DNA of 64,000 nt, taken from assembly GCA_029263725.1 (NCBI GenBank), contig JAJUFS010000002.1, positions 785 to 64,784 on the forward strand, in the 5' to 3' direction. Position numbers and translations under genes: made by a program. Shown here piece by piece: positions 3,325 through 32,259 of the stretch; the first letter of the stretch is position 1; every line of letters begins with the position of its first letter. The notes below the pieces were generated by a model. The model saw only the letters and a list, made by a program, of their open reading frames with translations, was not told the DNA's origin and made no database searches. The DNA comes from Gammaproteobacteria bacterium. GTDB taxonomy: Bacteria > Pseudomonadota > Gammaproteobacteria > Natronospirales > JAJUFS01.

Positions 3325-3543
3325 TTCCCCCTCTCTCCCTTCTCCCCTGTGCTGCCACCATAGGCCGCCATATCCCGAATCGGTATTGGTGCCAGGCTGT
3401 GTGTTCCCGCACCGTTCCTGATCACCGCTCGCTGTTCTTAGGTGAAAGCCCGGTCGTGTTGTCGCCCGTGCGGCCACCCTTGATTTTCCCTGGCCCGGGC
3501 GCAGTCATCATCCATTCCCCTGCTGTCTTTGCCGGAGCCCGCC

Positions 3544-4761
3544 ATGCGTAACGTCTTCTGCCTGCTCTGCCTGGTGATGACCATTCCGCTCCTTTCCCCG
3601 CCCGTACTGGCCGGCGAGTGCCGGCCGGTCGCCACCGATCCGCCGAACGCGCGCGACCAGGAACCGCACTTCCCGCACCAGGCGCGCGCCTGCGAGAAGA
3701 AGACCAACGTTCCGCTCAAGGTGGAAGTGCTCGCCGAAGGGCTCGAGCATCCCTGGGCCGTGGAGGTGCTCGACGATGACGAAGGCCTGCTGGTGACGGA
3801 ACGCGCCGGCCGGCTGCGCCATGTCAGCCCTGACGGCAAGCTGAGCGAGCCCATACAGGGTTTGCCGGAAGTGTTCGCGCAAGGACAGGGCGGGCTGCTG
3901 GACGTCATTGCCGATGATGACTTCGACGACAACCGCCGCATCTACTGGTCGTTCAGCGAACCGCGCGAGGGCGGCAACACCACCGCGGTGGCGCGCGGCA
4001 CGCTGTCACGCGATTACGCGCGCGTGGAGGACGTCGAGATCATCTTCCGCGCTGAGCCGGTGTACGACGGCGACAAGCATTTCGGCTCGCGCCTGCTCAT
4101 CGATGACGACGACGATCACCTCTACATTACCCTCGGCGAGCGCTCCGACATGCCGATGCGCGAGTACGCGCAGCGGCTGGACTCGCATCTCGGCAGCGTC
4201 CTGCGCGTCACCACGGACGGCAAGCCCGCGCGCGGCAATCCATTCATGAATCGCCAGGACGCGAAACCGGAAATCTGGAGCTACGGCCACCGCAACATCC
4301 AGGCGGCGGCCTTCGACGATGACGACCGGCTATGGGTGATCGAACACGGCGCCAACGGCGGCGACGAACTCAACCTGGTGAAGAAGGGCGCGAACTACGG
4401 CTGGCCGAGGGTTGCCTACGGCATCGAGTACTCCGGTGAACCGATTCGCGGCGCCGTCACACACAAGGAAGGCTTCGAGCCGCCGGTGTATTACTGGGAT
4501 CCGGTGATCGGCCCTTCCGGCGCGCTCTTCCATGACGGCGACATGTTCGAGGAATGGGAAGACGACCTGCTCATCGGCGGGCTCGTCGCCACCGGCATCG
4601 TCCGGCTCGACATCCGCAACAGGAAGGTCGTCGGCGAAGAGCGCCTGCTCACCGAACGCGGCCGCCGCATCCGCGACATCGCCGAAGGCGACGACGGCGA
4701 GCTTTACGTCGTCACCGATGAAGCGAACGGGCAGTTGTGGAAAGTGACGCGTGGAAGGTGA
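3544..4761 (+). CDS. PQQ-dependent sugar dehydrogenase (soluble aldose/sorbosone dehydrogenase, YliI-like), secreted
   Basis: The signal peptide MRNVFCLLCLVMTIPLLSPPVLAG and the motifs GHRNIQAAAFD and GGDELNLVKKGANYGWP are typical of the six-bladed sGDH/YliI family. Confidence 0.88.
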   Translation: MRNVFCLLCLVMTIPLLSPPVLAGECRPVATDPPNARDQEPHFPHQARACEKKTNVPLKVEVLAEGLEHPWAVEVLDDDEGLLVTERAGRLRHVSPDGKLSEPIQGLPEVFAQGQGGLLDVIADDDFDDNRRIYWSFSEPREGGNTTAVARGTLSRDYARVEDVEIIFRAEPVYDGDKHFGSRLLIDDDDDHLYITLGERSDMPMREYAQRLDSHLGSVLRVTTDGKPARGNPFMNRQDAKPEIWSYGHRNIQAAAFDDDDRLWVIEHGANGGDELNLVKKGANYGWPRVAYGIEYSGEPIRGAVTHKEGFEPPVYYWDPVIGPSGALFHDGDMFEEWEDDLLIGGLVATGIVRLDIRNRKVVGEERLLTERGRRIRDIAEGDDGELYVVTDEANGQLWKVTRGR

Positions 4762-5864: not shown

Positions 5865-6319
5865 GATTCTCCCTGTTTGCGTTTCGCGAGCAGCGCGTCG
5901 AGGTGATTCGCGAACGCCTTGCGCTCGGCCTGGCCCATGGCCGGCGGACCGCCGGACTGGATGCCGCTGGCACGCAAGGTGTCCATGAAGTCGCGCATGT
6001 TGAGGCGCTGGCGGATGGTATCCGGCGAGTAGAGTTCGCCGCGCGGGTTGAGCGCATGCGCGCCTTTCTCCATCACCTCGGCGGCCAGCGGAATGTCGGC
6101 GGTGACGACGATGTCGCCCGCTTCCGCGCGGCGGGCGATTTCGTTGTCGGCGACATCGAAGCCCGGCATCACCTGCAGGCTGCGAATGAACGGCGAGCGC
6201 GGCACGCGCACCGTGCGGTTGGCGACCAATGTCACCATCACGCGCGCGCGGTCCGCGGCGCGAAACAGGATTTCGCGAATCGCGACCGGACAGGCGTCTG
6301 CGTCGACCCAGATGTTCAT
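5861..6319 (-). CDS. yaiI: YaiI/YqxD family protein (UPF0178, DUF188)
   Basis: Close full-length resemblance to E. coli YaiI as I recall it ([11 protein letters not shown]..., [42 protein letters not shown]). Its start overlaps the macB stop by 4 nt. Confidence 0.92.
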
Positions 6320-8268
6320 TCCGATGCCAATGCCACGACAGGGTCCAGCGTCGCCGCCTTGCGCGCGGGCAGCCAGCCGAACAGCAGACCGATGATGAAG
6401 GCGGAGGAAAACGCCAGCAGCGCGGGGCCGATGGAGAACACCACGCGCGTGCCCAGCGCTTCCGCCACCATGCCCGCGCCGAAACCGGCGGCAACGCCGA
6501 GCACGCCGCCGATGAGACAGACCACGACCGCCTCGGTACTGAACTGCAGCATGATGTCGCCGGTGCGCGCGCCTACCGCCTTGCGGATGCCGATCTCGCG
6601 CGTCCGCTCCGTCACCGACACCAGCATGATGTTCATCACGCCGATGCCGCCGACCAGCAGCGAGATCGCCGCCACCGAACCGAGCATCACGGTAAGGGTG
6701 TTCTGTGTCGCCTCCACCGCTTCCAGCAGGGATGCGGTGTTGCGCACCTGGAAGTCATCGGCACCGTGGCGGGCGCGCAGCAGGCCGGTGACCGCGGACT
6801 CGATCTCGTCGATGCGCGCCGCATCCGCCACCTGCACCCGCACCGAGTTCAGGAACTGCGCGCCGAACAGGCGCACGAAGCCGGTGGACAGCGGCACCAG
6901 CACGACGTCATCCATGTCGGAGCCGAAGGCGCTCGCGCCCTTCGCCTCCAGTATGCCGATCACCTCGAAGGGCACGTTGCCGATGAGCACGTAACTGCCG
7001 ACGGCGCCGAGCGGACCATCGGGAAAGAGATTCTTCGCGACGGTCTGGCCGAGCACGGCGACGCCGGTGTAGCGGCGCACGTCGTCCTCGTTGATGAAGC
7101 TGCCGCGCACCACGTTCCATTCGCGCACGCTCGCATAGTCCGGCCACACGCCGACCACGCTGGACTGGTAATCGAGCCGGCCGACGCGCAGCGTGGTGCG
7201 CGTGCTGCGTTCCGGCGACACGCCGGTGATGCCGGGAATGTCGCGCAGCGCTTCCGCGTCCGCCGGGACGAGCGTGGCGATTTCCGCAGACCTCACGCCG
7301 CGCCCGCCGGGAAACACCATCAGCACGTTGGTGCCCATGGACTGGATGCGTTCCAGCACTTCCTGCTTGCTGCCGTTGCCGATGGCCATCATCGCCACCA
7401 CCGCGCCCACGCCGATGACGATGCCGAGCAGGGTGAGCAGGGTGCGGAACAGGTTGACGCGCAGCGAGCGGCCGGCCATCGCCACCGCTTCCATGAAGTC
7501 GCCCAGCCAGGCGCTGTAATTCGCGACATGCGAGGCCTCGGCTCGCGTTCGCACGACTTCGTTGACGCGGCCGCTGTCCTCGATGATGCGGCCGTCGAGG
7601 ATGCGGATGACGCGATCGGCATGCGCGGCCACCTGCGGCTCGTGGGTGATCAGCAGCACGGTCTTGCCCTCGGCATGGAACTGCCGCAGCAGCGCCATGA
7701 CTTCCTCGCTGGTCTGGCTGTCCAGTGCGCCGGTGGGCTCGTCGGCGAGGATGATGGCGGGTTCGTTGGCGAGTGCGCGCGCGATGGAGACGCGCTGCTG
7801 CTGTCCGCCGGAAAGCTCGTTGGGACGGTTCGTTTCCTTGCCGCCGAGGCCGAGCTTCTGCAGCAGCTGTCGCGCGCGCGCGGCGCGCGCCTCGCGCGGC
7901 CGCCCGGCGTAGATCTGCGGCAGCTCGACGTTCTCCGCGGCGCTCAGCGCCGGCACCAGGTTGTAGCGCTGGAACACGAAGCCGAAGACGTCGCGGCGCA
8001 GCTCGGCGAGCTCGTCGTCATCCAGCGTGCTCACGTCCTTGCCGTTGACGAAATAGCGGCCTTCGGTGGCGCGATCGAGACAACCGAGGATGTTCATCAG
8101 CGTGGACTTGCCGGAACCCGACTGGCCCATGATGGCGACGAACTCGCCGGGATGGACCTGCAGCGAGACGCCGTCGAGTGCGCGAAACTCGGTCGCGCCG
8201 CTGCGATAGACGCGGCTGACGTTCTCGACCTTGAGCAGCGGCTGGGCGCCGTTCATGGCCTCGCTCAC
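6316..8268 (-). CDS. macB: MacB-type fused ABC ATPase/FtsX-permease (macrolide export family)
   Basis: It has an N-terminal ABC domain ([44 protein letters not shown]), a large periplasmic domain and a C-terminal FtsX-type 4-TM module. GTG 8268 overlaps the macA stop (GTGA); ATG 8256 is an alternative start. Confidence 0.93.
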
Positions 8269-9431
8269 AGCCGCGCCCCGAAGCGCGGCGTGCGCCGCGC
8301 GTCAGCCGCCGCCATGGCCGCCGCAGGCATGAGCACGACATCGCCTTCCTTGAGGCCGGAGCGGACTTCCGCCTCGCTGCGGTTGGCGATGCCGATCTCC
8401 ACCGTGCGCTTCTCGATGCGCTCGCCGACAAGCACCTCGGCCTGGTAGCGGCCGCGCTCGCCCGGCACGGGCACGAGCGCGGCAAGCGGCACCACCGGCA
8501 CGTTCTCGGCGCGCTCCAGCACGAAGAACACCTGCACGGTCATGTCCGGCAGCAGCAGGCGCTCCTCGTTGGCGACGTCGATCAGCGCCTTGTAGAGCAC
8601 CACATCGTTGACGATCTCGGGCGTGGGCTGGATCTGCCGCACGATGCCTTCGAAGCGCCGGTCGGGCATGCCCAGCGTGGTGAAGTACGCCGGCATGCCG
8701 GGGCGGATGCGGTTCACGTCCGCCTCGGCCACTTCCGCCCACACCGTCATGGTGCCGAGATCGGCGATGCGCACGATCTCCGGCGCGGTCTGGGTGGCGT
8801 TCACGGTCTGGCCCTCGACGGCGCTGCGCGAAACCACCGTGCCCTTCATGGGCGCATAGATGCGGGTGTAGCCGAGATTGGCGCGGTCTTCCTCGACGGT
8901 GGCGCGCGCCGAACGGATCTGCGCCTCGGTGGCGCGAATGCCGGCCTGCAGCATGGCGACGTTCGCCTCCTGCTCGTCGACGGCTTCCTTGCTGACCGCG
9001 TTGCTGCCGAGCAGGCGGCGATTGCGCTCGAGACGCAGCTCCGCGAGCCGAAGTTCGGCCTGCTGGCGCGCCTTCTGCGCCTCGAGATTGTCGAGGTTGG
9101 CCTCGTCCTTGCGCAGCCGGGCCTCATAGACGGTGGGATCGATCTCGGCGATCAGCTGGCCCTGCTCGACCTCGTCGCCGATGTCGACATGCATGCGGCG
9201 CAGCTGGCCGGAAACCTGCGTGCCGACGTCGACATATTCCTTGGGCTGCAGCGAGCCCAGCGCCGTGACGGTGTTCTCCACCGTGCCCCGCTCGACCCTG
9301 ACCTGCGGGCGCTGCCGGCTCGCCTCGTCATCGCCGTTGCCGCGCAGGAAATGCCAGGCGATCGCGGCCAGCGCGACGACGAGCAGCGCGACGGGGATCC
9401 AGCGGATTCGCCGGGAGGAAGGACTGGGCAT
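8265..9431 (-). CDS. macA: MacA-type periplasmic adaptor (HlyD/RND MFP family)
   Basis: An N-terminal membrane anchor is followed by a long coiled-coil hairpin (EARLRKDEANLDNLEAQKARQQAELRLAELRLERNRRLL), lipoyl and beta-barrel regions. It is immediately upstream of and coupled to macB. Confidence 0.9.
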   Translation of the reverse strand: MPSPSSRRIRWIPVALLVVALAAIAWHFLRGNGDDEASRQRPQVRVERGTVENTVTALGSLQPKEYVDVGTQVSGQLRRMHVDIGDEVEQGQLIAEIDPTVYEARLRKDEANLDNLEAQKARQQAELRLAELRLERNRRLLGSNAVSKEAVDEQEANVAMLQAGIRATEAQIRSARATVEEDRANLGYTRIYAPMKGTVVSRSAVEGQTVNATQTAPEIVRIADLGTMTVWAEVAEADVNRIRPGMPAYFTTLGMPDRRFEGIVRQIQPTPEIVNDVVLYKALIDVANEERLLLPDMTVQVFFVLERAENVPVVPLAALVPVPGERGRYQAEVLVGERIEKRTVEIGIANRSEAEVRSGLKEGDVVLMPAAAMAAADARRTPRFGARL

Positions 9432-9664
9432 GCATGGACTCCTGCAGGACGGGCCACGGCATTGACTGCGGATGCGGCGCGAAGGTTCAACGTGGCCCCG
9501 GATTTTCGCATGTTGCGGACCGTCGATGCGCCCCTGTCTGTCCCGGCATACACTCCTGACAGGGAATTTTCCTCAGGAAATCCTTCGTGGTTACGCGATC
9601 CCGATTTCGGGATGGCGGCAGAACGCTGTTAACATCGGCGCTTTCCCATCGCCATACCCCCGTC

Positions 9665-10501
9665 ATGCCGAATTTCCGTCGCCAACTTTTCCTGCTTGCG
9701 GCCGTGCTGCTGTCCTCGGCGTGCGCCACCGACGCGCGTCTCGCACGGCTGGAGGAAGCCAGCGCCATGCAGGTCCGCCTGCTGGCAGAACACAACGTCA
9801 TGCTCAACCAGCAGGCCGAGCTCATGGCGCAATTGATCGAAGCGCAGCAGCAGCAGCGCGAGGCCATCTCCGGCCTCGATAGCGCGCTGCAGCGCGAGCG
9901 AGCGCGCCTCGAGAAGGTGGTGCACAAGCTCGACCCGGAAAGCGACACGCCCGAGCCGGAGACGGTGCCCGTGCAGGTGGTCGATCACGAGGGCAAGGCG
10001 GTGGTCGGCCGCAATGAATGGGCCTGGTTCGACCTGCTCGGCCGCAATCTCAAGGCGCGCGTCGATACCGGTGCGCTCACCTCCTCGCTGAACGCCATCG
10101 ACCTGCAGCCCTTCGAGCGCGACGGCCGCCGCTGGATACGCTTCCGCGTGCCCGACCAGGAGCATCCCGACGGCGGCGACGTCTACGAGACCCGGCTGGT
10201 GCGCTACGTGCGCATCAAGCAGGCCTCGGCGGACGGCATGGACCGCCGCCCGGTGGTGAAGCTGCTGGTGCGGGTGGGCGAGCTGGTGGACGAAACCGAG
10301 TTCACGCTCAACAACCGCGAGGACATGCTCTACCCGGTGCTGCTCGGCCGCAGTTTCCTGCGCGATGTCGCCATCGTCGATGTCTCGCGCGTCTTCGTGC
10401 AGCCGAAGTTCCGCCCCGAGGAATCGCCGCCCGCCGTGGCCGAAGCCGAGGCGGACGCCGCGTCAGGCAACGGTGATGAAGCCACGGAGAGCGCCGAATG
10501 A
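9665..10501 (+). CDS. secreted retropepsin-like aspartic protease domain protein (annotated family name: ATP-dependent zinc protease / RimB-like)
   Basis: It has a signal/lipoprotein-like N-terminus (MPNFRRQLFLLAAVLLSSAC), a Q/E/L-rich helical segment, the core GRNEWAWFDLLGRNLKARVDTGALTSSLNA...WIRFRV and an acidic tail. The stop overlaps the next start (ATGA). Confidence 0.8.
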   Translation: MPNFRRQLFLLAAVLLSSACATDARLARLEEASAMQVRLLAEHNVMLNQQAELMAQLIEAQQQQREAISGLDSALQRERARLEKVVHKLDPESDTPEPETVPVQVVDHEGKAVVGRNEWAWFDLLGRNLKARVDTGALTSSLNAIDLQPFERDGRRWIRFRVPDQEHPDGGDVYETRLVRYVRIKQASADGMDRRPVVKLLVRVGELVDETEFTLNNREDMLYPVLLGRSFLRDVAIVDVSRVFVQPKFRPEESPPAVAEAEADAASGNGDEATESAE

Positions 10502-12018
10502 AGAGGCCGAACCGTACCGCGTTCTTCCTGCTGGTGGCGGCCCTGCTCGGCGCCGGCGCCTTCCTGACCTGGTACCGCCACGTCACCTTCGAAGTGCCCT
10601 TCCTGCCCGGCGAACGCCGCCAGGTCTGGTCGGTGGAAGCGCAGATCGACTTCATCGCCATGGGCGAGGCGGTGACCGCCTCGCTGGCCGTGCCCGGCAG
10701 CCAGCCCGGCTTCGAGCTCATCGGCGAACACACCGCCAGCCCGGGCTACGGGCTCGCCTTCGTGGAGAACAACGGCGCGCGCCGCGCCGAATGGTCCATC
10801 CGCCGCGCCGAGGGCCGGCAGACGCTGTATTACCGCGCCGACATGATGGTCGATCCCGAGACCCTGGAGGACAAGGTCGGCGTGCCGCCGCCGATCCGCC
10901 AGGTGGTGCGCGACGGCGGCCCGCAGGCCACGGCCGCGGCGCAGCTGCTGCAGAACGCCGAGGCGCGTTCCGCCAACCCGTACACGCTGGCCCGCGAGCT
11001 CATCCACGAGTTCAACCAGGAAACCCAGACCGCGCGCCTGCTGGAGCAGGAAAAGCCGCGCGGCGAATGGCTGGTGGAGCTGCTCAACCAGGCGGGCGTG
11101 GCGGCGCGCGTGGTGCTGGCGCTGGAACTGGAGGACGGCCGCCGCCGGCAGTCGCCGGTGCAGGTGCTGCAGGTCTTCGACGGCGAGCGCTATGCGCTGT
11201 TCAACATTCGCAGCGGCCGCCAGGGCCAGCGCGCCAACCTGCTCTTGTGGGAGTACCAGTCCGGCTCGCTGCTGGACGTGGTCGGCGGCCGCAACTCGGA
11301 AGTGAACTTCGCGATGATCCTGCAGGAAGTGCCGATCAATCGCATGCTGGAGGCCGGCGTGCTGCCCGCTGCGCAGCACTTCCTGGATTTCTCCATCCAC
11401 AGCCTGCCGCTGTCCGAGCAGACGCTGTTCAAGGGCATCCTGCTGATCCCGGTGGGCGTGCTGATCGTCTGCTTCATGCGCATCTTCGTCGGCCTGCGCA
11501 CTTCCGGCACCTTCATGCCGGTGCTGATCGCGCTCGCCTTCATCCAGACCAGCCTGGTCACCGGCCTGGTCGGCTTCCTGCTGGTGGTGGCCGCGGGCCT
11601 GATGATCCGCTCCTATCTGTCGAAGCTGAACCTGCTGCTGGTGGCGCGAATATCCACGGTGATCATCTCGGTGATCATCATCATCGCGGCGTTCTCGGTG
11701 CTGTCCTTCCAGCTCGGTCTCACCGAGGGGCTGAAGATCACCTTCTTCCCGATGATCATCCTGGCCTGGACCATCGAGCGCATGTCCATCCTCTGGGAAG
11801 AGGAAGGCCCGAAGGAAGTGCTGGTGCAGGGCGGCGGCTCGCTGTTCGTCGCGCTGATCGCCTACGTGGCGATGAGCCACCCGGTGGTGCGGCATCTCAC
11901 CTTCAATTTCCTCGGCCTGCAGCTGGTCATGCTGGCGCTGCTGCTGGTGCTCGGCAATTACACCGGCTATCGCCTGAGCGAGTTCCGCCGCTTCCGGCCG
12001 CTGGTGGAGCGCGGCTGA
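10498..12018 (+). CDS. inactive transglutaminase-like domain fused to 7TM module (UUP1 family membrane protein)
   Basis: The architecture read from the sequence is one N-terminal TM helix, a soluble domain of about 270 aa and a C-terminal block of about seven hydrophobic helices (LLIPVGVLIVCFMRIFVGLRTSGTFMPVLIALAF...). Its position between the protease and the ATP-grasp matches the described family context. Confidence 0.78.
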   Translation: MKRPNRTAFFLLVAALLGAGAFLTWYRHVTFEVPFLPGERRQVWSVEAQIDFIAMGEAVTASLAVPGSQPGFELIGEHTASPGYGLAFVENNGARRAEWSIRRAEGRQTLYYRADMMVDPETLEDKVGVPPPIRQVVRDGGPQATAAAQLLQNAEARSANPYTLARELIHEFNQETQTARLLEQEKPRGEWLVELLNQAGVAARVVLALELEDGRRRQSPVQVLQVFDGERYALFNIRSGRQGQRANLLLWEYQSGSLLDVVGGRNSEVNFAMILQEVPINRMLEAGVLPAAQHFLDFSIHSLPLSEQTLFKGILLIPVGVLIVCFMRIFVGLRTSGTFMPVLIALAFIQTSLVTGLVGFLLVVAAGLMIRSYLSKLNLLLVARISTVIISVIIIIAAFSVLSFQLGLTEGLKITFFPMIILAWTIERMSILWEEEGPKEVLVQGGGSLFVALIAYVAMSHPVVRHLTFNFLGLQLVMLALLLVLGNYTGYRLSEFRRFRPLVERG

Positions 12019-13007
12019 TGCGCGCACTGCTGGACAGGCTGTTCCCGGCGCGCGCGATGAGGGAAATCGGCGTGCTTGGCATGAACGGGCGCAACATCAA
12101 TTACATCAGCCGCTACAACTCGCGGCAGCTGTATCCGCTGGTCGATGACAAGCTGAAGACCAAGCAGCTCGCGCTGGAACATGGCGTGACCACGCCGGAG
12201 CTGATCGGCGTGATCTCGGCGCAGCACGACGTGCGCCGCATCGCCGAGCTGGTGAAGGGCCATGACGGCTTCTGCATCAAGCCCGCCAAGGGTTCGGGCG
12301 GCAAGGGCATCCTGGTGGTGGCGCGCGTCGAGGACGGGCGCTTCTTCCGCACCAATGGCACCGAGATCCCGCTCATCGACCTGCAACGGCATCTTTCCAA
12401 CGTGCTCGCCGGCCTGTTCTCGCTGGGCGGCGCGCCGGATGTCGCCATCATCGAGGCGCTCATCCGTCCCGACGAGGTGTTCCGCGACTATTCCTACGCC
12501 GGCGTGCCGGACATCCGCGTGGTGGTTTTCCAGGGCGTGCCGGTGATGGCCATGGTACGGCTGTCCTGCGCGGCCTCGAACGGCAAGGCCAACCTCCACC
12601 AGGGCGCGGTCGGCGTCGGGCTCGCCATGGACACCGGCCGCGCGGTCTGCGCCGTGCAGCGCAACCGGCCCGTATTCATCCATCCCGATACCGGACATCC
12701 GCTGGACGGCCTCGTCATCCCGCACTGGCATGCGCTGCTGGAACTGTCGTGTGCGTGTGCGGACATGACCGGACTGGGCTATCTTGGCGTGGACCTGGTG
12801 ATGGACCGCGAGCGCGGCCCCATGCTGCTGGAACTGAACGCCCGCCCCGGGCTCGCCATCCAGATGGCGAACGGCACGGGGCTGCTGCCGCGGCTGCGGC
12901 GGGTGGAAGCCGAGCCGCGCATCGTCAAGGCCGGCGTGCGCGAGCGAGCCGCCTTCGCGGCCCGGCATTTCGGCACGCGTCCTGCCGCCATCGCCGCGGT
13001 CGCCTGA
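12018..13007 (+). CDS. alpha-L-glutamate ligase-like (RimK-related) ATP-grasp protein
   Basis: MRALLDRLF...GMNGRNINYISRYN, CIKPAKGSGGKGILVV and LLELNARPGLAIQ are ATP-grasp/RimK-like signatures. ATG 12018 shares one base with the upstream TGA. The long N-terminal part of the 880-aa ORF-track call lies in another gene's space. Confidence 0.85.
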   Translation: MRALLDRLFPARAMREIGVLGMNGRNINYISRYNSRQLYPLVDDKLKTKQLALEHGVTTPELIGVISAQHDVRRIAELVKGHDGFCIKPAKGSGGKGILVVARVEDGRFFRTNGTEIPLIDLQRHLSNVLAGLFSLGGAPDVAIIEALIRPDEVFRDYSYAGVPDIRVVVFQGVPVMAMVRLSCAASNGKANLHQGAVGVGLAMDTGRAVCAVQRNRPVFIHPDTGHPLDGLVIPHWHALLELSCACADMTGLGYLGVDLVMDRERGPMLLELNARPGLAIQMANGTGLLPRLRRVEAEPRIVKAGVRERAAFAARHFGTRPAAIAAVA

Positions 13008-13028
13008 ATTCCAACGGGAGTGACAGCC

Positions 13029-13376
13029 ATGAAATACAAGGGAAGCTGCCATTGCGGCCGCGTCGCCTTCGAGGTCGAGGGCGAGATCGGCACGGTGATC
13101 GACTGCAACTGCTCGATGTGCCAGCGCAAGGGCGCGCTGCTGTGGTTCGTGCCGCGCGCCGATCTCAGGCTCACCACGCCGGAAGAGAACAGCCGCGCGT
13201 ACACCTTCAACACCCACACCATCAAGCATCGCTTCTGCCCCGAGTGCGGCATCCATCCCTATGGCGAGGGCGCGGACCCGCAGGGCAACGAAACTGCCGC
13301 CATCAACGTGCGCTGCCTGGAAGGCGTCGACATCGGCTCGCTGAGCGTGCATCACTACGACGGCCGCTCGCACTGA
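13029..13376 (+). CDS. GFA family (glutathione-dependent formaldehyde-activating/CENP-V-like) Zn-Cys protein
   Basis: MKYKGSCHCGRVAFEV...CNCSMCQRKG...RFCPECG is the characteristic Cys pattern. A GGGAG RBS lies 8 nt upstream of ATG 13029. Confidence 0.88.
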   Translation: MKYKGSCHCGRVAFEVEGEIGTVIDCNCSMCQRKGALLWFVPRADLRLTTPEENSRAYTFNTHTIKHRFCPECGIHPYGEGADPQGNETAAINVRCLEGVDIGSLSVHHYDGRSH

Positions 13377-13492
13377 CGACTGGGCGTTTCCGCTTGCTTG
13401 CCCGGGTGGCGTTCCGCCTCCATTGACACCTCCTGAGGAGGTGCACCGATGGCAAGCGGAACGCCGCGCATGAAGCGCGGCCATGCGTCGCA

Positions 13493-14983
13493 ATGACGGG
13501 CAGGCGCAGGGGACTCAACGCGGTCTTCTGGGACGGCCTGTTCGCGCAGGCGATGGACACGCTCACCACCGGCGTCATCCTGGTCGGCTTCGCGCTCTAT
13601 CTCGGCGCCACGCCCTGGGTGATCGGCATCCTCGGCGCCATTCCCTTCTTCTCCAACCTGTTCCAGCTGCTGTCGATCTCGCTGGTCGAGCGGCTGCGCG
13701 ACCGGCGCCGCATCGTGGTCACGGCCTCGTTGATCGGCCGCAGCGCGCTGGCTCTGGCGCTGCTCATTCCGTGGATGGCGCCGGAATCCGGACTCGTGCT
13801 GCTGGTGTGCGTGATCTGCGTGCGCTACGTGTTCGGCGCGATTTCCGCCGGCGCCTGGACTTCGCTGATGCGCGATCTCGTGCCGCAGCGCCTGCTGGGC
13901 AGCTACTACGCGACGCGCATGCGCTGGATGACCATCGTCGCCGCCATCCTTGGCGTTGCCGGTGCGCTCATCATCGACTACTGGCAGCGGCAATGGGAGG
14001 AATCGGTGGTGTGGGCCTTCGCCGGCATGTACGGCCTCGGCTTTCTCGCCAGCCTCGGCAGCCTCACCATGCTGCTGCGCCTGCCCGAGGTGCCGCTGCC
14101 GCAGCGCGAGAAGAAGGCCTACTCACAGACGCTGGTGCTCGATGCCTTCATCTCGGCGTGGAATCACGTCAACTTCCGGCGGCTGATGATCTTCATGGCG
14201 TCGTGGAATTTCGCCGCCAATCTCGCCGCGCCGTTCTTCGCGCTGTACATGCTGACAGTGCTCAACTACGACCTGACCTTCGTCATGCTGATCACGCTGT
14301 ACAGCCAGGCCATCACCGCGATGGCGCTGCCGCGCTTCGGCGCCTACACCGACCGCTTCGGCAACAAGCCGGTGCTGGGCTTCGCGGCGACGCTGTTCAT
14401 CCTCTGCCTTGTCGGCTGGTCGTTCACCACCCTGCCCTATCCGCATGACTACACCACGCCGCTGCTGGTGCTGCTGCACACGCTGATGGGCATCGCCACC
14501 GCGGGCATCAATCTCGCCAACAACAACGTCGCCTTCCGGCTCGCGCCGCGCAGCGAGGCGACGTCCTTCCTGGTGGCGAACAGCGTGCTGAGCTCGCTGA
14601 CCGCCGGCATGGCGCCGCTGCTCGGCGGCCTGTTCGCCGACTACTTCGCCTTGCGCCAGCTCGCCGTGGAGATCCGCTGGCTCAGCCCCGAGGGCAACGT
14701 GTTCCTGCAGACGCTGAATCTCACCGGCTGGGATTTCTTCTTCGTGGGCGCGGCGATCGTCGGGCTGTATTCGCTGCACCGGCTGTCGCTGATCGAGGAA
14801 GGCCGCAACGACCGGCGCCGCGCGGTGGCGCGCGAGCTGATGCTGGACACCAGCCGCATGCTGCGCGGGATCGCCACGGTCGCGGGGCTGCGCGACATCG
14901 TGACGACGCCGTTCAACATCGTCTACGCGATGGTGAAGCGCACGCCGCCGCAGCGCCCGCCGCGGCGGCGCAGCTCTCAGTGA
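13493..14983 (+). CDS. MFS transporter
   Basis: This 496-aa polytopic protein shows 12-14 hydrophobic helices and an MFS-like loop pattern. The start ATG overlaps the stop of an 8-codon uORF (see findings). Confidence 0.8.
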   Translation: MTGRRRGLNAVFWDGLFAQAMDTLTTGVILVGFALYLGATPWVIGILGAIPFFSNLFQLLSISLVERLRDRRRIVVTASLIGRSALALALLIPWMAPESGLVLLVCVICVRYVFGAISAGAWTSLMRDLVPQRLLGSYYATRMRWMTIVAAILGVAGALIIDYWQRQWEESVVWAFAGMYGLGFLASLGSLTMLLRLPEVPLPQREKKAYSQTLVLDAFISAWNHVNFRRLMIFMASWNFAANLAAPFFALYMLTVLNYDLTFVMLITLYSQAITAMALPRFGAYTDRFGNKPVLGFAATLFILCLVGWSFTTLPYPHDYTTPLLVLLHTLMGIATAGINLANNNVAFRLAPRSEATSFLVANSVLSSLTAGMAPLLGGLFADYFALRQLAVEIRWLSPEGNVFLQTLNLTGWDFFFVGAAIVGLYSLHRLSLIEEGRNDRRRAVARELMLDTSRMLRGIATVAGLRDIVTTPFNIVYAMVKRTPPQRPPRRRSSQ

Positions 14984-16038
14984 CGCTGGCCGGGCCGCCA
15001 GCGCGGGCGGTGGCCCAGCCGCCAGAAGGTGCGCGCGACGCGCCCGGCGATGTCCGCGAGCGCGTCGGGGTCGGAGTCCAGCGTGGCGCGGGTGTACAGG
15101 CTGCGTTCCGCCACGCCGCTGGAACCGCCGAGGCGATAGCTGCCGCGCTCGTCGAGCTCGTCGCCGGGTCCGTGCAGGTTGCAGTGGCCGGTGTCGTAGG
15201 CGGGCGTGTCGGTAAGCTGCAGGTCGAACAGCGTCTCCTGCATCAGCCGCTCGGCGGTGCGCGGTGCGGCGCGCGCCAGCATGGAGGCAAGTTCCGCCGC
15301 GCCGCCGACCACCACCTCGGAGCGCGGCGTCTCGGCGCAGAACAGGATGGCGTCCGCCGCCACGCGCGGCGAATACAGCGGCGGCGGGTTCCTGGGCTGC
15401 ACCGGCAGGTAGTTCTTCGCATGGCGGCAGAACGGCGTGTCGATGCTGGCCGGCTTGACCAGCGTGACCGAGACCGGCGCTTCCTCGCAGGCGAGTTCCA
15501 TGCGCAGCGCGTCGGTGTAGGCCTTCACCGCGTGCTTGGCGGCACTGTAAATTCCCTGCAGGGGGACGGCGTGGTCGCAGGTGACGCTGCCGATGTTGAT
15601 CAGCGCGCCGCCGTGACGACGCAGGTGCTCGACCGCGACGCGCGAGCCATGCACCACGCCCCAGAAGTCGGTGTCGAACAGCCGCCGCTGGTCCTCGAGG
15701 CTGATCTCGGTGAGCGGACCGTATATGGTGACGCCGGCGTTGTTCACCCAGGTATCGAAATTGCCGAAATGCTCGGCCGCGCGCATGGCGATGCGTTTCA
15801 CGTCCTCTTCCCTGCCGACGTCGGCGGGAACGGCGACGGCATCGCAGCCGCGCGTGGCAAGCTCGGTACGCAGGCGCTCAAGCGCCTCCGCGCCGCGCGC
15901 CGCGAGCACCAGCCGCGCGCCGCGCCGGGCAGCCTCGCGCGCCGTTGCCAGCCCTATGCCGCTGGTCGCACCGGTGATGACGATCACCTGGTCGCGCACC
16001 GGCTTGAGTCGCAGCCTGCCGTTGTAGTCTCGCGCCAT
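14977..16038 (-). CDS. SDR family oxidoreductase
   Basis: It has the TGATSGIG cofactor motif, NNAG and the YSAAK catalytic motif, plus a C-terminal extension of about 100 aa. Confidence 0.9.
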   Translation of the reverse strand: MARDYNGRLRLKPVRDQVIVITGATSGIGLATAREAARRGARLVLAARGAEALERLRTELATRGCDAVAVPADVGREEDVKRIAMRAAEHFGNFDTWVNNAGVTIYGPLTEISLEDQRRLFDTDFWGVVHGSRVAVEHLRRHGGALINIGSVTCDHAVPLQGIYSAAKHAVKAYTDALRMELACEEAPVSVTLVKPASIDTPFCRHAKNYLPVQPRNPPPLYSPRVAADAILFCAETPRSEVVVGGAAELASMLARAAPRTAERLMQETLFDLQLTDTPAYDTGHCNLHGPGDELDERGSYRLGGSSGVAERSLYTRATLDSDPDALADIAGRVARTFWRLGHRPRWRPGQRH

Positions 16039-32079: not shown

Positions 32080-32259
32080 CTACGTTACCTGCCGCGGCAG
32101 GTCCTCCACAAGCACGCCGGGATCGGGCTCGGACGACGGCTCATCGATCATCGCCAGCAACAGCCGCGGGCGGGCGGCAAGGTAAGCCGCATCGTCTTCG
32201 TCCTCGTCATGCATCTCGATGTGCCCCGGCGAATGCTCCCCCACCGTGAGTGAGATCAT
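32080..32259 (-). CDS. hypothetical small acidic protein (59 aa; below the ORF-track cut-off)
   Basis: Hand translation gives [60 protein letters not shown] strong SD run GGAGGAGGAGCAGGAG lies directly upstream, and third codon positions are mostly G/C, as in flanking genes. It sits between the OMF gene and the ABC-2 ATPase gene. Confidence 0.5.

Follow-up and report, generated by a model that had tools for sequence, protein, structure and literature searches.

What do a secreted protease, an inner-membrane protein and a cytoplasmic ligase do together when their genes overlap in one operon? This question is raised by positions 9665-13007 of a stretch of 64,000 nucleotides from a gammaproteobacterium (assembly GCA_029263725.1, contig JAJUFS010000002.1, positions 785 to 64,784; the whole stretch is hereafter called the window). 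An initial annotation, made from the DNA letters alone, described the three genes as a coupled triad for which no substrate, product or phenotype was known. The statement stands insofar as no product has been identified, but the part on phenotype does not, as the same triad has been named rloABC and studied genetically in Pseudomonas aeruginosa by Lormand et al. (mBio 2025, PMC12239564). The window triad is very probably a divergent orthologue of P. aeruginosa rloABC carried by an uncultured gammaproteobacterium, and its genes and products are referred to here by the corresponding names.

In P. aeruginosa, the operon comprises PA14_41700-41730 (PA1768-PA1767-PA1766), and RloA, like each of its two paralogues, is a retropepsin-like protease that is exported, forms dimers and has a channel with positive charge; these enzymes cut runs of at least eight glutamates in vitro (PMC12239564). 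A triple rloA mutant could not grow in salt-free LB and showed defects in biofilm formation, beta-lactam tolerance and cell shape; removing rloB, rloC or the two together fully rescued hypo-osmotic growth and partly rescued the other defects (PMC12239564). The in vivo substrate of RloA and the activities of RloB and RloC were left unidentified in that study, which also reported that rimB has no genetic interaction with rloA and that P. aeruginosa has no genome-encoded poly-Glu species outside the cytoplasm (PMC12239564). The operon was described as widely conserved in Gammaproteobacteria, and in Vibrio cholerae, whose operon was counted as orthologous, it is reported to be induced by the cell-wall-damage system VxrAB (PMC12239564). 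In addition, a suppressor screen in P. aeruginosa repeatedly hit PA1768-67-66 (PMC7314104), and transposon insertions in the RloB homologue of Shewanella vesiculosa led to hypervesiculation (PMC12096838). No later paper on the mechanism of rloABC was found in the literature.

The assignment is based on domain calls with Pfam and NCBIfam profiles and on AlphaFold2 models searched with Foldseek against the PDB. The window RloA matches PF05618 over residues 113-248 (3.2e-38; the family is called 'RimB-like' in the newest Pfam), RloB matches PF14400 (7.3e-54) and PF14402 (3.7e-108), and RloC passes TIGR02291 (435.7 bits against a cut-off of 314.2), a family with the same 'alpha-L-glutamate ligase-like' product name as PA1766. 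All these matches, including that of the ATP-grasp domain, lie far beyond chance, so that the three domain calls of the initial annotation were right. Like the Pseudomonas operon, the window triad thus combines a signal-peptide-bearing PF05618 retropepsin, a PF14400 plus PF14402 protein and a TIGR02291 protein in the same order on one strand, and it keeps the DTGA catalytic site, the basic channel and the division between periplasm, membrane and cytoplasm that had been proposed earlier. The name 'UUP1 family membrane protein', previously given as the one in current use for the second product, is missing from the libraries and source names searched, which give 'inactive transglutaminase family protein' or RloB instead.

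The profile scores also show how divergent this copy is. RloA reached 113.8 bits with the NCBIfam model of RloA3 (cut-off 210), 91.6 with that of RloA2 (250) and 66.8 with that of RloA1 (280), all below cut-off; unlike in Pseudomonas, where RloA1 is the operon-linked protein, the window RloA is therefore closest to RloA3. For RloB, the full-length match to the NCBIfam RloB model ('osmotic stress tolerance membrane protein') reached 322.3 bits against a cut-off of 900. These four models were built on Pseudomonas proteins, and the RloB cut-off of 900 bits is of the narrow 'exception' type. The window RloA also fails the RimB equivalog NF052261 (76.1 of 200 bits).

All three genes lie on the plus strand. 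The rloA-like gene (9665-10501; ATG start at 9665, stop at 10499-10501) encodes a secreted retropepsin-like aspartic protease of 278 amino acids, the rloB-like gene (10498-12018) an inactive-transglutaminase/seven-transmembrane-helix (7TM) inner-membrane protein of 506 amino acids, and the rloC-like gene (12018-13007) a cytoplasmic ATP-grasp ligase of 329 amino acids, designated 'alpha-L-glutamate ligase-like'. The genes overlap by ATGA at 10498-10501 (rloA/rloB) and by TGATG at 12016-12020 (rloB/rloC), and a GGAG is found 8-11 nucleotides before the start of rloB and of rloC, each within the preceding gene, which together is the usual arrangement for translational coupling. An independent gene caller gave products of 278, 506, 329 and 115 amino acids in other assemblies of the same organism. 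A GTG at 9587 is a possible alternative start of rloA; only the ATG at 9665 yields a proper signal peptide, and no Shine-Dalgarno match is present upstream of this ATG (9645-9664). No sigma-70-like promoter was found in 9300-13700, where the search for RNA elements, promoters and terminators returned nothing above chance. An open reading frame of 565 codons antisense to rloB (10330-12027, minus strand) was considered and rejected as a high-GC artefact, given the overwhelming family support for the plus-strand gene.

Is the triad a constant unit in other genomes? A scan for RloB homologues with one genome per species yielded at least 591 genomes, of which the best 80 loci (RloB identity 53-74%) were compared; they include Thiohalomonas, Cellvibrionaceae, Methylophaga, Aeromonas, Oceanisphaera, Zobellella, Photobacterium and Vibrio. 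In all 80, rloB is immediately preceded by a gene for an RloA homologue and immediately followed by one for an RloC homologue on the same strand, with gaps mostly of -4 to +24 nucleotides between the first two genes and of -8 to +20 between the last two. The triad is also carried by plasmid 5 of Legionella adelaidensis (NZ_LR134414.1), with an RloB of 36% identity, a 2-nucleotide gap and a 4-nucleotide overlap. Co-occurrence of the three genes is thus strict in this census, and the overlaps, the internal GGAG sequences and the tight junctions of the 80 loci support the earlier view of a single operon with coupled translation; the gene boundaries and the motifs quoted at that time (LLAAVLLSSAC, ARVDTGALTSSLNA and the DEATESAE tail in RloA, and CIKPAKGSGGKGILVV and LLELNARPGLAIQ in RloC) are all present as well.

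The family itself is large. In the protein collection, RloB forms more than 4666 clusters (90% identity), and a search with the 7TM domain alone found 1461 (50% identity); nearly all of the best 150 matches to this domain are proteins of ~500-535 amino acids with the same architecture. The exact RloB of the window is known from metagenomes only, and its nearest other relative is 73% identical. Two candidate Rosetta-stone fusions of the 7TM and ATP-grasp domains (P0308 and P0320) proved to be frameshift-merged rloB and rloC calls from low-quality assemblies; as such they confirm the adjacency of rloB and rloC in distant relatives. Several annotation problems were encountered in the family. A number of Methylophaga RloB homologues (P0079, P0080 and P0101) bear the spurious name 'Gonadoliberin III' in UniRef/NCBI, and the Legionella retropepsin gene (3414-3926 of the fetched locus) is mislabelled with the wrong family as 'RimK/LysX family protein'. 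Its annotated start cuts off the signal peptide, the longer reading frame beginning MRLVLFFIFSWTFLCGS. Two convergent genes for C1-family peptidases are located just downstream of the Legionella triad.

Relatives of the window RloA in the PDB are 9g59 (1.9e-20), 9g58 and 2pma. The first 60 nucleotides of rloA (9665-9724, plus strand), whose product reads MPNFRRQLFLLAAVLLSSAC, would encode a signal peptide with the lipobox LSSA-C20; MPNFRRQLFLLAAVLL-SSA-C20 fits the lipobox pattern after a basic n-region and a hydrophobic h-region. The lipobox Cys is conserved in at least 90% of 76 aligned operon-linked homologues, and the pattern fits 62 homologues, none of which has Asp as the +2 residue. The window RloA is therefore a predicted lipoprotein and signal peptidase II substrate, and the E. 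coli sorting rule, taken with the +2 residue that is never Asp, suggests anchoring in the outer membrane. C20 is the single Cys of the protein, which consequently lacks the disulfide reported to be conserved in periplasmic orthologues.

Behind the lipobox follow a helical stalk rich in Q, E, L and A (residues 21-88) and a Pro/Glu-rich linker (residues 89-105; stalk and linker at 9725-9979, plus strand). In the window copy, the stalk has a hydrophobic periodicity of 3.5 residues (z=3.8) and one Pro or Gly in its first 70 residues. Among the 62 homologues, the distance between the lipobox Cys and the catalytic Asp varies only from 106 to 132 residues (median 117.5) at a mean identity of 36% in the stalk segment. 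The lipoprotein-stalk form is shared by Vibrio, Aeromonas and Methylophaga, so that the Vibrio loci of the census have the protease form of the window. By contrast, the stalk is missing from the Pseudomonas forms (model lengths of 159-178, with matches starting at ~17-21), and the Legionella RloA is short (170 amino acids including the signal peptide) and also stalkless. The window RloA thus differs from Pseudomonas RloA as a predicted lipoprotein with an ~85-residue helical stalk and no disulfide pair. The lipoprotein-on-stalk protease is a clade-wide variant, which is not mentioned in the 2025 rloABC paper.

The retropepsin domain proper (9980-10414, plus strand) carries the catalytic residues D134-T135-G136-A137 and a conserved basic channel. 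DTGA is conserved in at least 90% of the 76 homologues, and Lys or Arg occupies positions 132, 152, 180, 185, 194, 195, 218, 229, 233 and 242 in at least 90% of them. In the alignment, R132, R195 (in 'RPV') and R218 face basic residues of Pseudomonas 9g59 and 9g58 and of Legionella 2pma, and among the ten positions are those of K/R-x-D, RPV and (D/N)R, which have counterparts in the crystallised Pseudomonas RloA proteins. Judged by spacing, the three arginines would match K46, R114 and R137 in RloA of P. aeruginosa, residues that matter for poly-Glu cleavage (PMC12239564). The domain is followed by an acidic C-terminal tail (10415-10498, plus strand), with nine Asp or Glu among the last 35 residues as read from the sequence. 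A role of this tail as pseudo-substrate or as acceptor of the ligase was considered and rejected, as the tails are unconserved, and mostly basic or absent, in homologues.

For RloB, the AlphaFold2 model (mean predicted local distance difference test score, pLDDT, 82.8) places a first transmembrane helix (residues 7-31) before a beta-sandwich (40-118) and an alpha/beta domain (142-279), with seven helices after them (between 305 and 487). According to the positive-inside rule, the N-terminus, the loops GLRTSGT, SKLNLL and EEEGPKE and the Arg-rich C-terminal tail are cytoplasmic. Model and rule therefore agree with the topology proposed initially, that is, one N-terminal helix, an extracytoplasmic region of ~270 amino acids and seven C-terminal helices. 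The periplasmic beta-sandwich plus transglutaminase-like domain (residues 32-304; 10591-11409, plus strand) matches 3isr, a transglutaminase-like putative Cys protease of Cytophaga hutchinsonii, in Foldseek (5.4e-8). RloB shares the beta-sandwich and the transglutaminase-like core with such Cys proteases, and differs from them in lacking a Cys in this region and in being fused to a 7TM domain. Residues 32-304 are free of Cys, and an alignment of 65 homologues shows no Cys that is conserved, so that the term 'inactive' holds for thiol chemistry. ASPGYGL (residues 80-86) and EDGRRRQ (212-218) are invariant within the clade. The idea that EDGRRRQ and the cytoplasmic WEEEG are general mechanistic elements was weakened by their changes in distant members and in Legionella.

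In the operon as a whole, conservation is highest in the seven-helix membrane domain (residues 305-487; 11410-11958, plus strand). The mean frequency of the top residue is 0.77-0.97 in the helices compared with 0.70-0.76 in the periplasmic domains, and the sixth transmembrane helix (FFPMIILAWTIERMSILW) scores 0.97, with E427-R428 buried in the membrane. This domain has no significant fold match in the PDB by Foldseek and belongs to no other Pfam family. Its conservation and its buried invariant charges suggest a transport or catalytic core rather than the transducer of a sensor.

RloC, in turn, is an ATP-grasp enzyme and not an orthologue of RimK, the poly-alpha-L-glutamate synthetase that modifies S6. 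It fails both RimK models, TIGR00768 (rimK_fam, 45.1 of 143.4 bits) and NF007764 (S6-glutamate ligase, 20.3 of 331 bits), and its best Pfam family is PF14397 (ATPgrasp_ST, 6.1e-98) over the full length, compared with 2.7e-10 on 43 residues only for the RimK model. The best solved folds for its model (pLDDT 87.8) are nevertheless RimK structures of E. coli and Pseudomonas (4iwx, 5zk6, 5zct and 7qys; ~2e-11, TM-score ~0.5), followed by LysX/ArgX, D-Ala-D-Ala ligase (Ddl) and cyanophycin synthetase. The ATP-grasp loops are found at K88/K96 and at S187-G201 ('GKANLHQGA'), and KPAKGSGGKGI, SxGKANLHQGA and D259/E272/N274/R276 are invariant. The alpha/beta domain that precedes the ATP-grasp fold is lacking: the first strand begins at residue 62, and residue 98 of RimK aligns with residue 43 of RloC. 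It is replaced by a helical N-terminus with the motif GxxGMNxRNxxYIxxYNxRxxxPLVDxKLxTK (residues 18-44; 12069-12149, plus strand), which is better conserved than the catalytic core (0.83 vs 0.74) and is modelled with a pLDDT of 61-78. High conservation at low model confidence is typical of a segment that becomes ordered on a partner, and the motif is a candidate docking surface. An RpsF-like C-terminal Glu acceptor on RloA, RloB or RloC was also looked for and rejected, the last residues of all three being variable.

How might these parts work together? RloC, docked through its N-terminal motif on the conserved cytoplasmic face of RloB, would build a Glu-rich polyanionic peptide or a glutamylated carrier. 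The seven-helix domain of RloB would pass the product over the inner membrane, and the dead transglutaminase-like domain may hold it in the periplasm. There the polyanion would be cut by RloA acting as a homodimeric retropepsin with a basic channel, a role that the conserved residues suggest for the window protein, and the length-conserved helical stalk may keep the gap between the protease and its anchor in the membrane constant. In cells lacking RloA, the product of RloBC would accumulate, damage the envelope and kill cells in dilute medium. If the product is toxic when uncut, loss of rloB or rloC should rescue a protease-less mutant, and this is what the genetics of P. aeruginosa revealed. 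Taken whole, the chain in which RloBC make and export a polyanion that RloA trims is a tentative reading that could well fail in one of its links. A more specific version, in which RloBC are a synthase-coupled exporter threading a non-ribosomal poly-alpha-glutamate-like polyanion through a novel 7TM fold, the product serves as a periplasmic charge or osmotic buffer like osmoregulated periplasmic glucans, and the coiled-coil stalk is a ruler that places RloA relative to the exporter in the clade of Vibrio, Aeromonas, Methylophaga and the window organism, appears doubtful.

The proposed logic has an analogue in Bacillus, where PgsBCA(E) and PgdS or CapD form a system in which a cytoplasm-facing amide ligase and membrane proteins extrude anionic poly-Glu that an extracellular hydrolase trims. 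The likeness is one of logic only, as PgsB is of the Mur-ligase rather than the ATP-grasp type, the linkage is gamma and not alpha, the hosts are Gram-positive and the families are unrelated. Closer in protein families is the RimK/RimB system (with RimA) for polyglutamylation of S6 in Pseudomonas and E. coli, which also pairs an ATP-grasp ligase with a PF05618 endopeptidase; RimB and RimK are a cytoplasmic protease and ligase pair acting on poly-alpha-Glu (PMC11957791). Unlike the triad, the Rim system is wholly cytoplasmic, has no membrane partner and uses the C-terminus of RpsF as acceptor, whereas RloA has an export signal. Moreover, RimB is encoded next to rimK, while the ligase adjoining the window RloA is not RimK.

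Several points weigh against this polyanion export reading. RloA and RloB of the window score well under the cut-offs of the Pseudomonas models, and transfer of the phenotypes extrapolates over ~35-40% identity. No transporter fold can be recognised in the 7TM domain, which makes export a guess, and glutamate as the RloC substrate is an analogy, considering that the best Pfam family of RloC is not RimK and that its identity to RimK is 17-20%. The RloC product has never been detected. The clade-invariant RRR of the periplasmic part and EEE of the cytoplasmic loop of RloB are lost in distant members and cannot belong to a general mechanism. No true RloB-RloC fusion proteins were found, and the authors of the P. 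aeruginosa study lean towards a possible connection with peptidoglycan homeostasis (PMC12239564).

The same body of evidence can be read in other ways. The compartment split is real, and the triad might be a transmembrane signalling device, as the initial annotation suggested. In it, the dead transglutaminase domain would sense a periplasmic ligand or the state of the envelope, the 7TM domain would switch on RloC to modify a cytoplasmic target and RloA would clear or process the signal, the ligase being locked on and toxic without RloA. Suppression of the triple rloA deletion by loss of rloB or rloC fits this possibility as well as it fits export; RloC is without an acceptor-binding N-terminal domain, and its conserved low-confidence motif could be a regulated docking site; and the V. 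cholerae operon reportedly responds to VxrAB, as noted above (PMC12239564). However, signalling would leave the source of an extracytoplasmic species of at least eight glutamates unexplained, as an encoded one is found neither in P. aeruginosa (PMC12239564) nor in the window. Within RloB, conservation peaks in the 7TM helices, which contain invariant buried Glu and Arg; this is unusual for a mere transducer, and no gene for a cytoplasmic target is kept next to the operon. We consider a signalling device rather unlikely.

An effect on the envelope could also arise if RloC added one or a few amino acids to a carboxylate of a lipid-linked sugar or of a muropeptide precursor, RloB flipped or presented the product and RloA removed the addition, thereby tuning the chemistry of the cell wall or of surface polymers. 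PF14397, the best family of RloC, is described as 'sugar-transfer associated ATP-grasp', and D-Ala-D-Ala ligases are among the fold matches of RloC, yet RimK ranks above Ddl in that search. The P. aeruginosa phenotypes (beta-lactam sensitivity, altered shape and hypo-osmotic lysis) are cell-wall-like, with a peptidoglycan link raised by the authors (PMC12239564), and disruption of the Shewanella RloB homologue causes hypervesiculation (PMC12096838). On the other hand, no glycosyltransferase, Mur or flippase gene is conserved beside the operon in the 80 loci, and RloA is an endopeptidase that needs at least eight Glu (PMC12239564) and not a single-residue amidase, so that precursor modification seems still less likely than signalling. 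Finally, RloB itself might be the target, its acidic cytoplasmic loops or its tail being glutamylated by RloC to adjust its activity, in the manner of TTLL enzymes on tubulin, with the periplasmic domain recruiting or regulating RloA on other envelope proteins. The clade-invariant cytoplasmic W-E-E-E-G loop, the highly conserved proximal C-terminal tail and the overlapping genes, which suggest a fixed stoichiometry and a complex, would agree with this. But the EEE loop becomes DEK or DER in distant family members, the variable last residues of RloA, RloB and RloC offer no RpsF-like acceptor, and RloA, being periplasmic, could not reach a modification made in the cytoplasm, which would leave its poly-Glu specificity unexplained. 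Modification of RloB is accordingly highly improbable. The export and trimming of a polyanion, tentative as it is, remains our preferred account of the triad.

It may also be asked whether the operon contains a fourth gene. A GFA/CENP-V-type Zn-Cys gene (13029-13376, plus strand; PF04828, 1.1e-16) begins 21 nucleotides past the rloC stop with GGGAG upstream (the GGAG, as for rloB and rloC, 8-11 nucleotides before the start), and it is probably co-transcribed with rloABC in the window organism. It had been suggested as a fourth member, a suggestion that had to be abandoned: no GFA homologue occurs within 6 kb in any of the 80 related loci, and GFA next to the triad was seen only in assemblies of the window's own organism. 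The GFA gene is thus a neighbour outside the system, and no other fourth gene conserved across clades was found around the 80 loci.

Some neighbours recur in part of the census. In 46-47 of the 80 loci (Aeromonas, Vibrio, Oceanisphaera and others), two genes of the same strand lie ~250-2300 nucleotides upstream of rloA, with an aspartyl-tRNA-synthetase-like gene farther up. Judged by their N-terminal sequences, the two look like cmoA and cmoB. This cmoA/cmoB/aspS-like synteny of the Aeromonas/Vibrio group is absent from the window, and nothing is kept downstream. In the window, a MacB-type ABC exporter (ABC_tran, MacB_PCD and FtsX; 6316-8268, minus strand) overlaps by 4 nucleotides with its HlyD/MFP partner (8265-9431). 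The pair is divergent from rloA over an intergenic region of 233 bp and does not accompany the triad elsewhere in the census. Farther downstream, beyond the GFA gene, an MFS transporter (13493-14983, plus strand) and a short-chain dehydrogenase (14977-16038, minus strand) converge with an overlap of 7 nucleotides; the dehydrogenase has 269 amino acids in the call of one other assembly as opposed to 353 here.

The window carries rloABC as a chromosomal operon of the housekeeping type. Its GC content stays level at ~0.67 throughout and gives no signal of horizontal transfer. None of the four proteins had a PADLOC match at E <=0.01 that would indicate association with a defence system, no RloB homologue was found in the phage collection, and the only plasmid matches were one mislabelled Aeromonas chromosome and the Legionella plasmid. 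Within the 64-kb window, there are no RloA paralogues, RloC paralogues or RimBK, and no encoded poly-Glu substrate was found. The sole acidic run of at least six residues in any frame of the window is DEDEDD at 32191-32208 (minus strand).

The window therefore adds one more divergent copy of a named and experimentally studied operon. The rloABC family is large, and its roles in P. aeruginosa, which include hypo-osmotic survival, biofilm formation and beta-lactam tolerance, make its chemistry medically relevant. For work on the mechanism, it may be useful to know that the protease, except in Pseudomonas and Legionella, is as a rule a predicted lipoprotein with a stalk whose length is conserved, that RloC has a highly conserved N-terminal motif in place of an acceptor-binding domain, that conservation in the system peaks in the membrane helices of RloB, and that the operon is complete with three genes.

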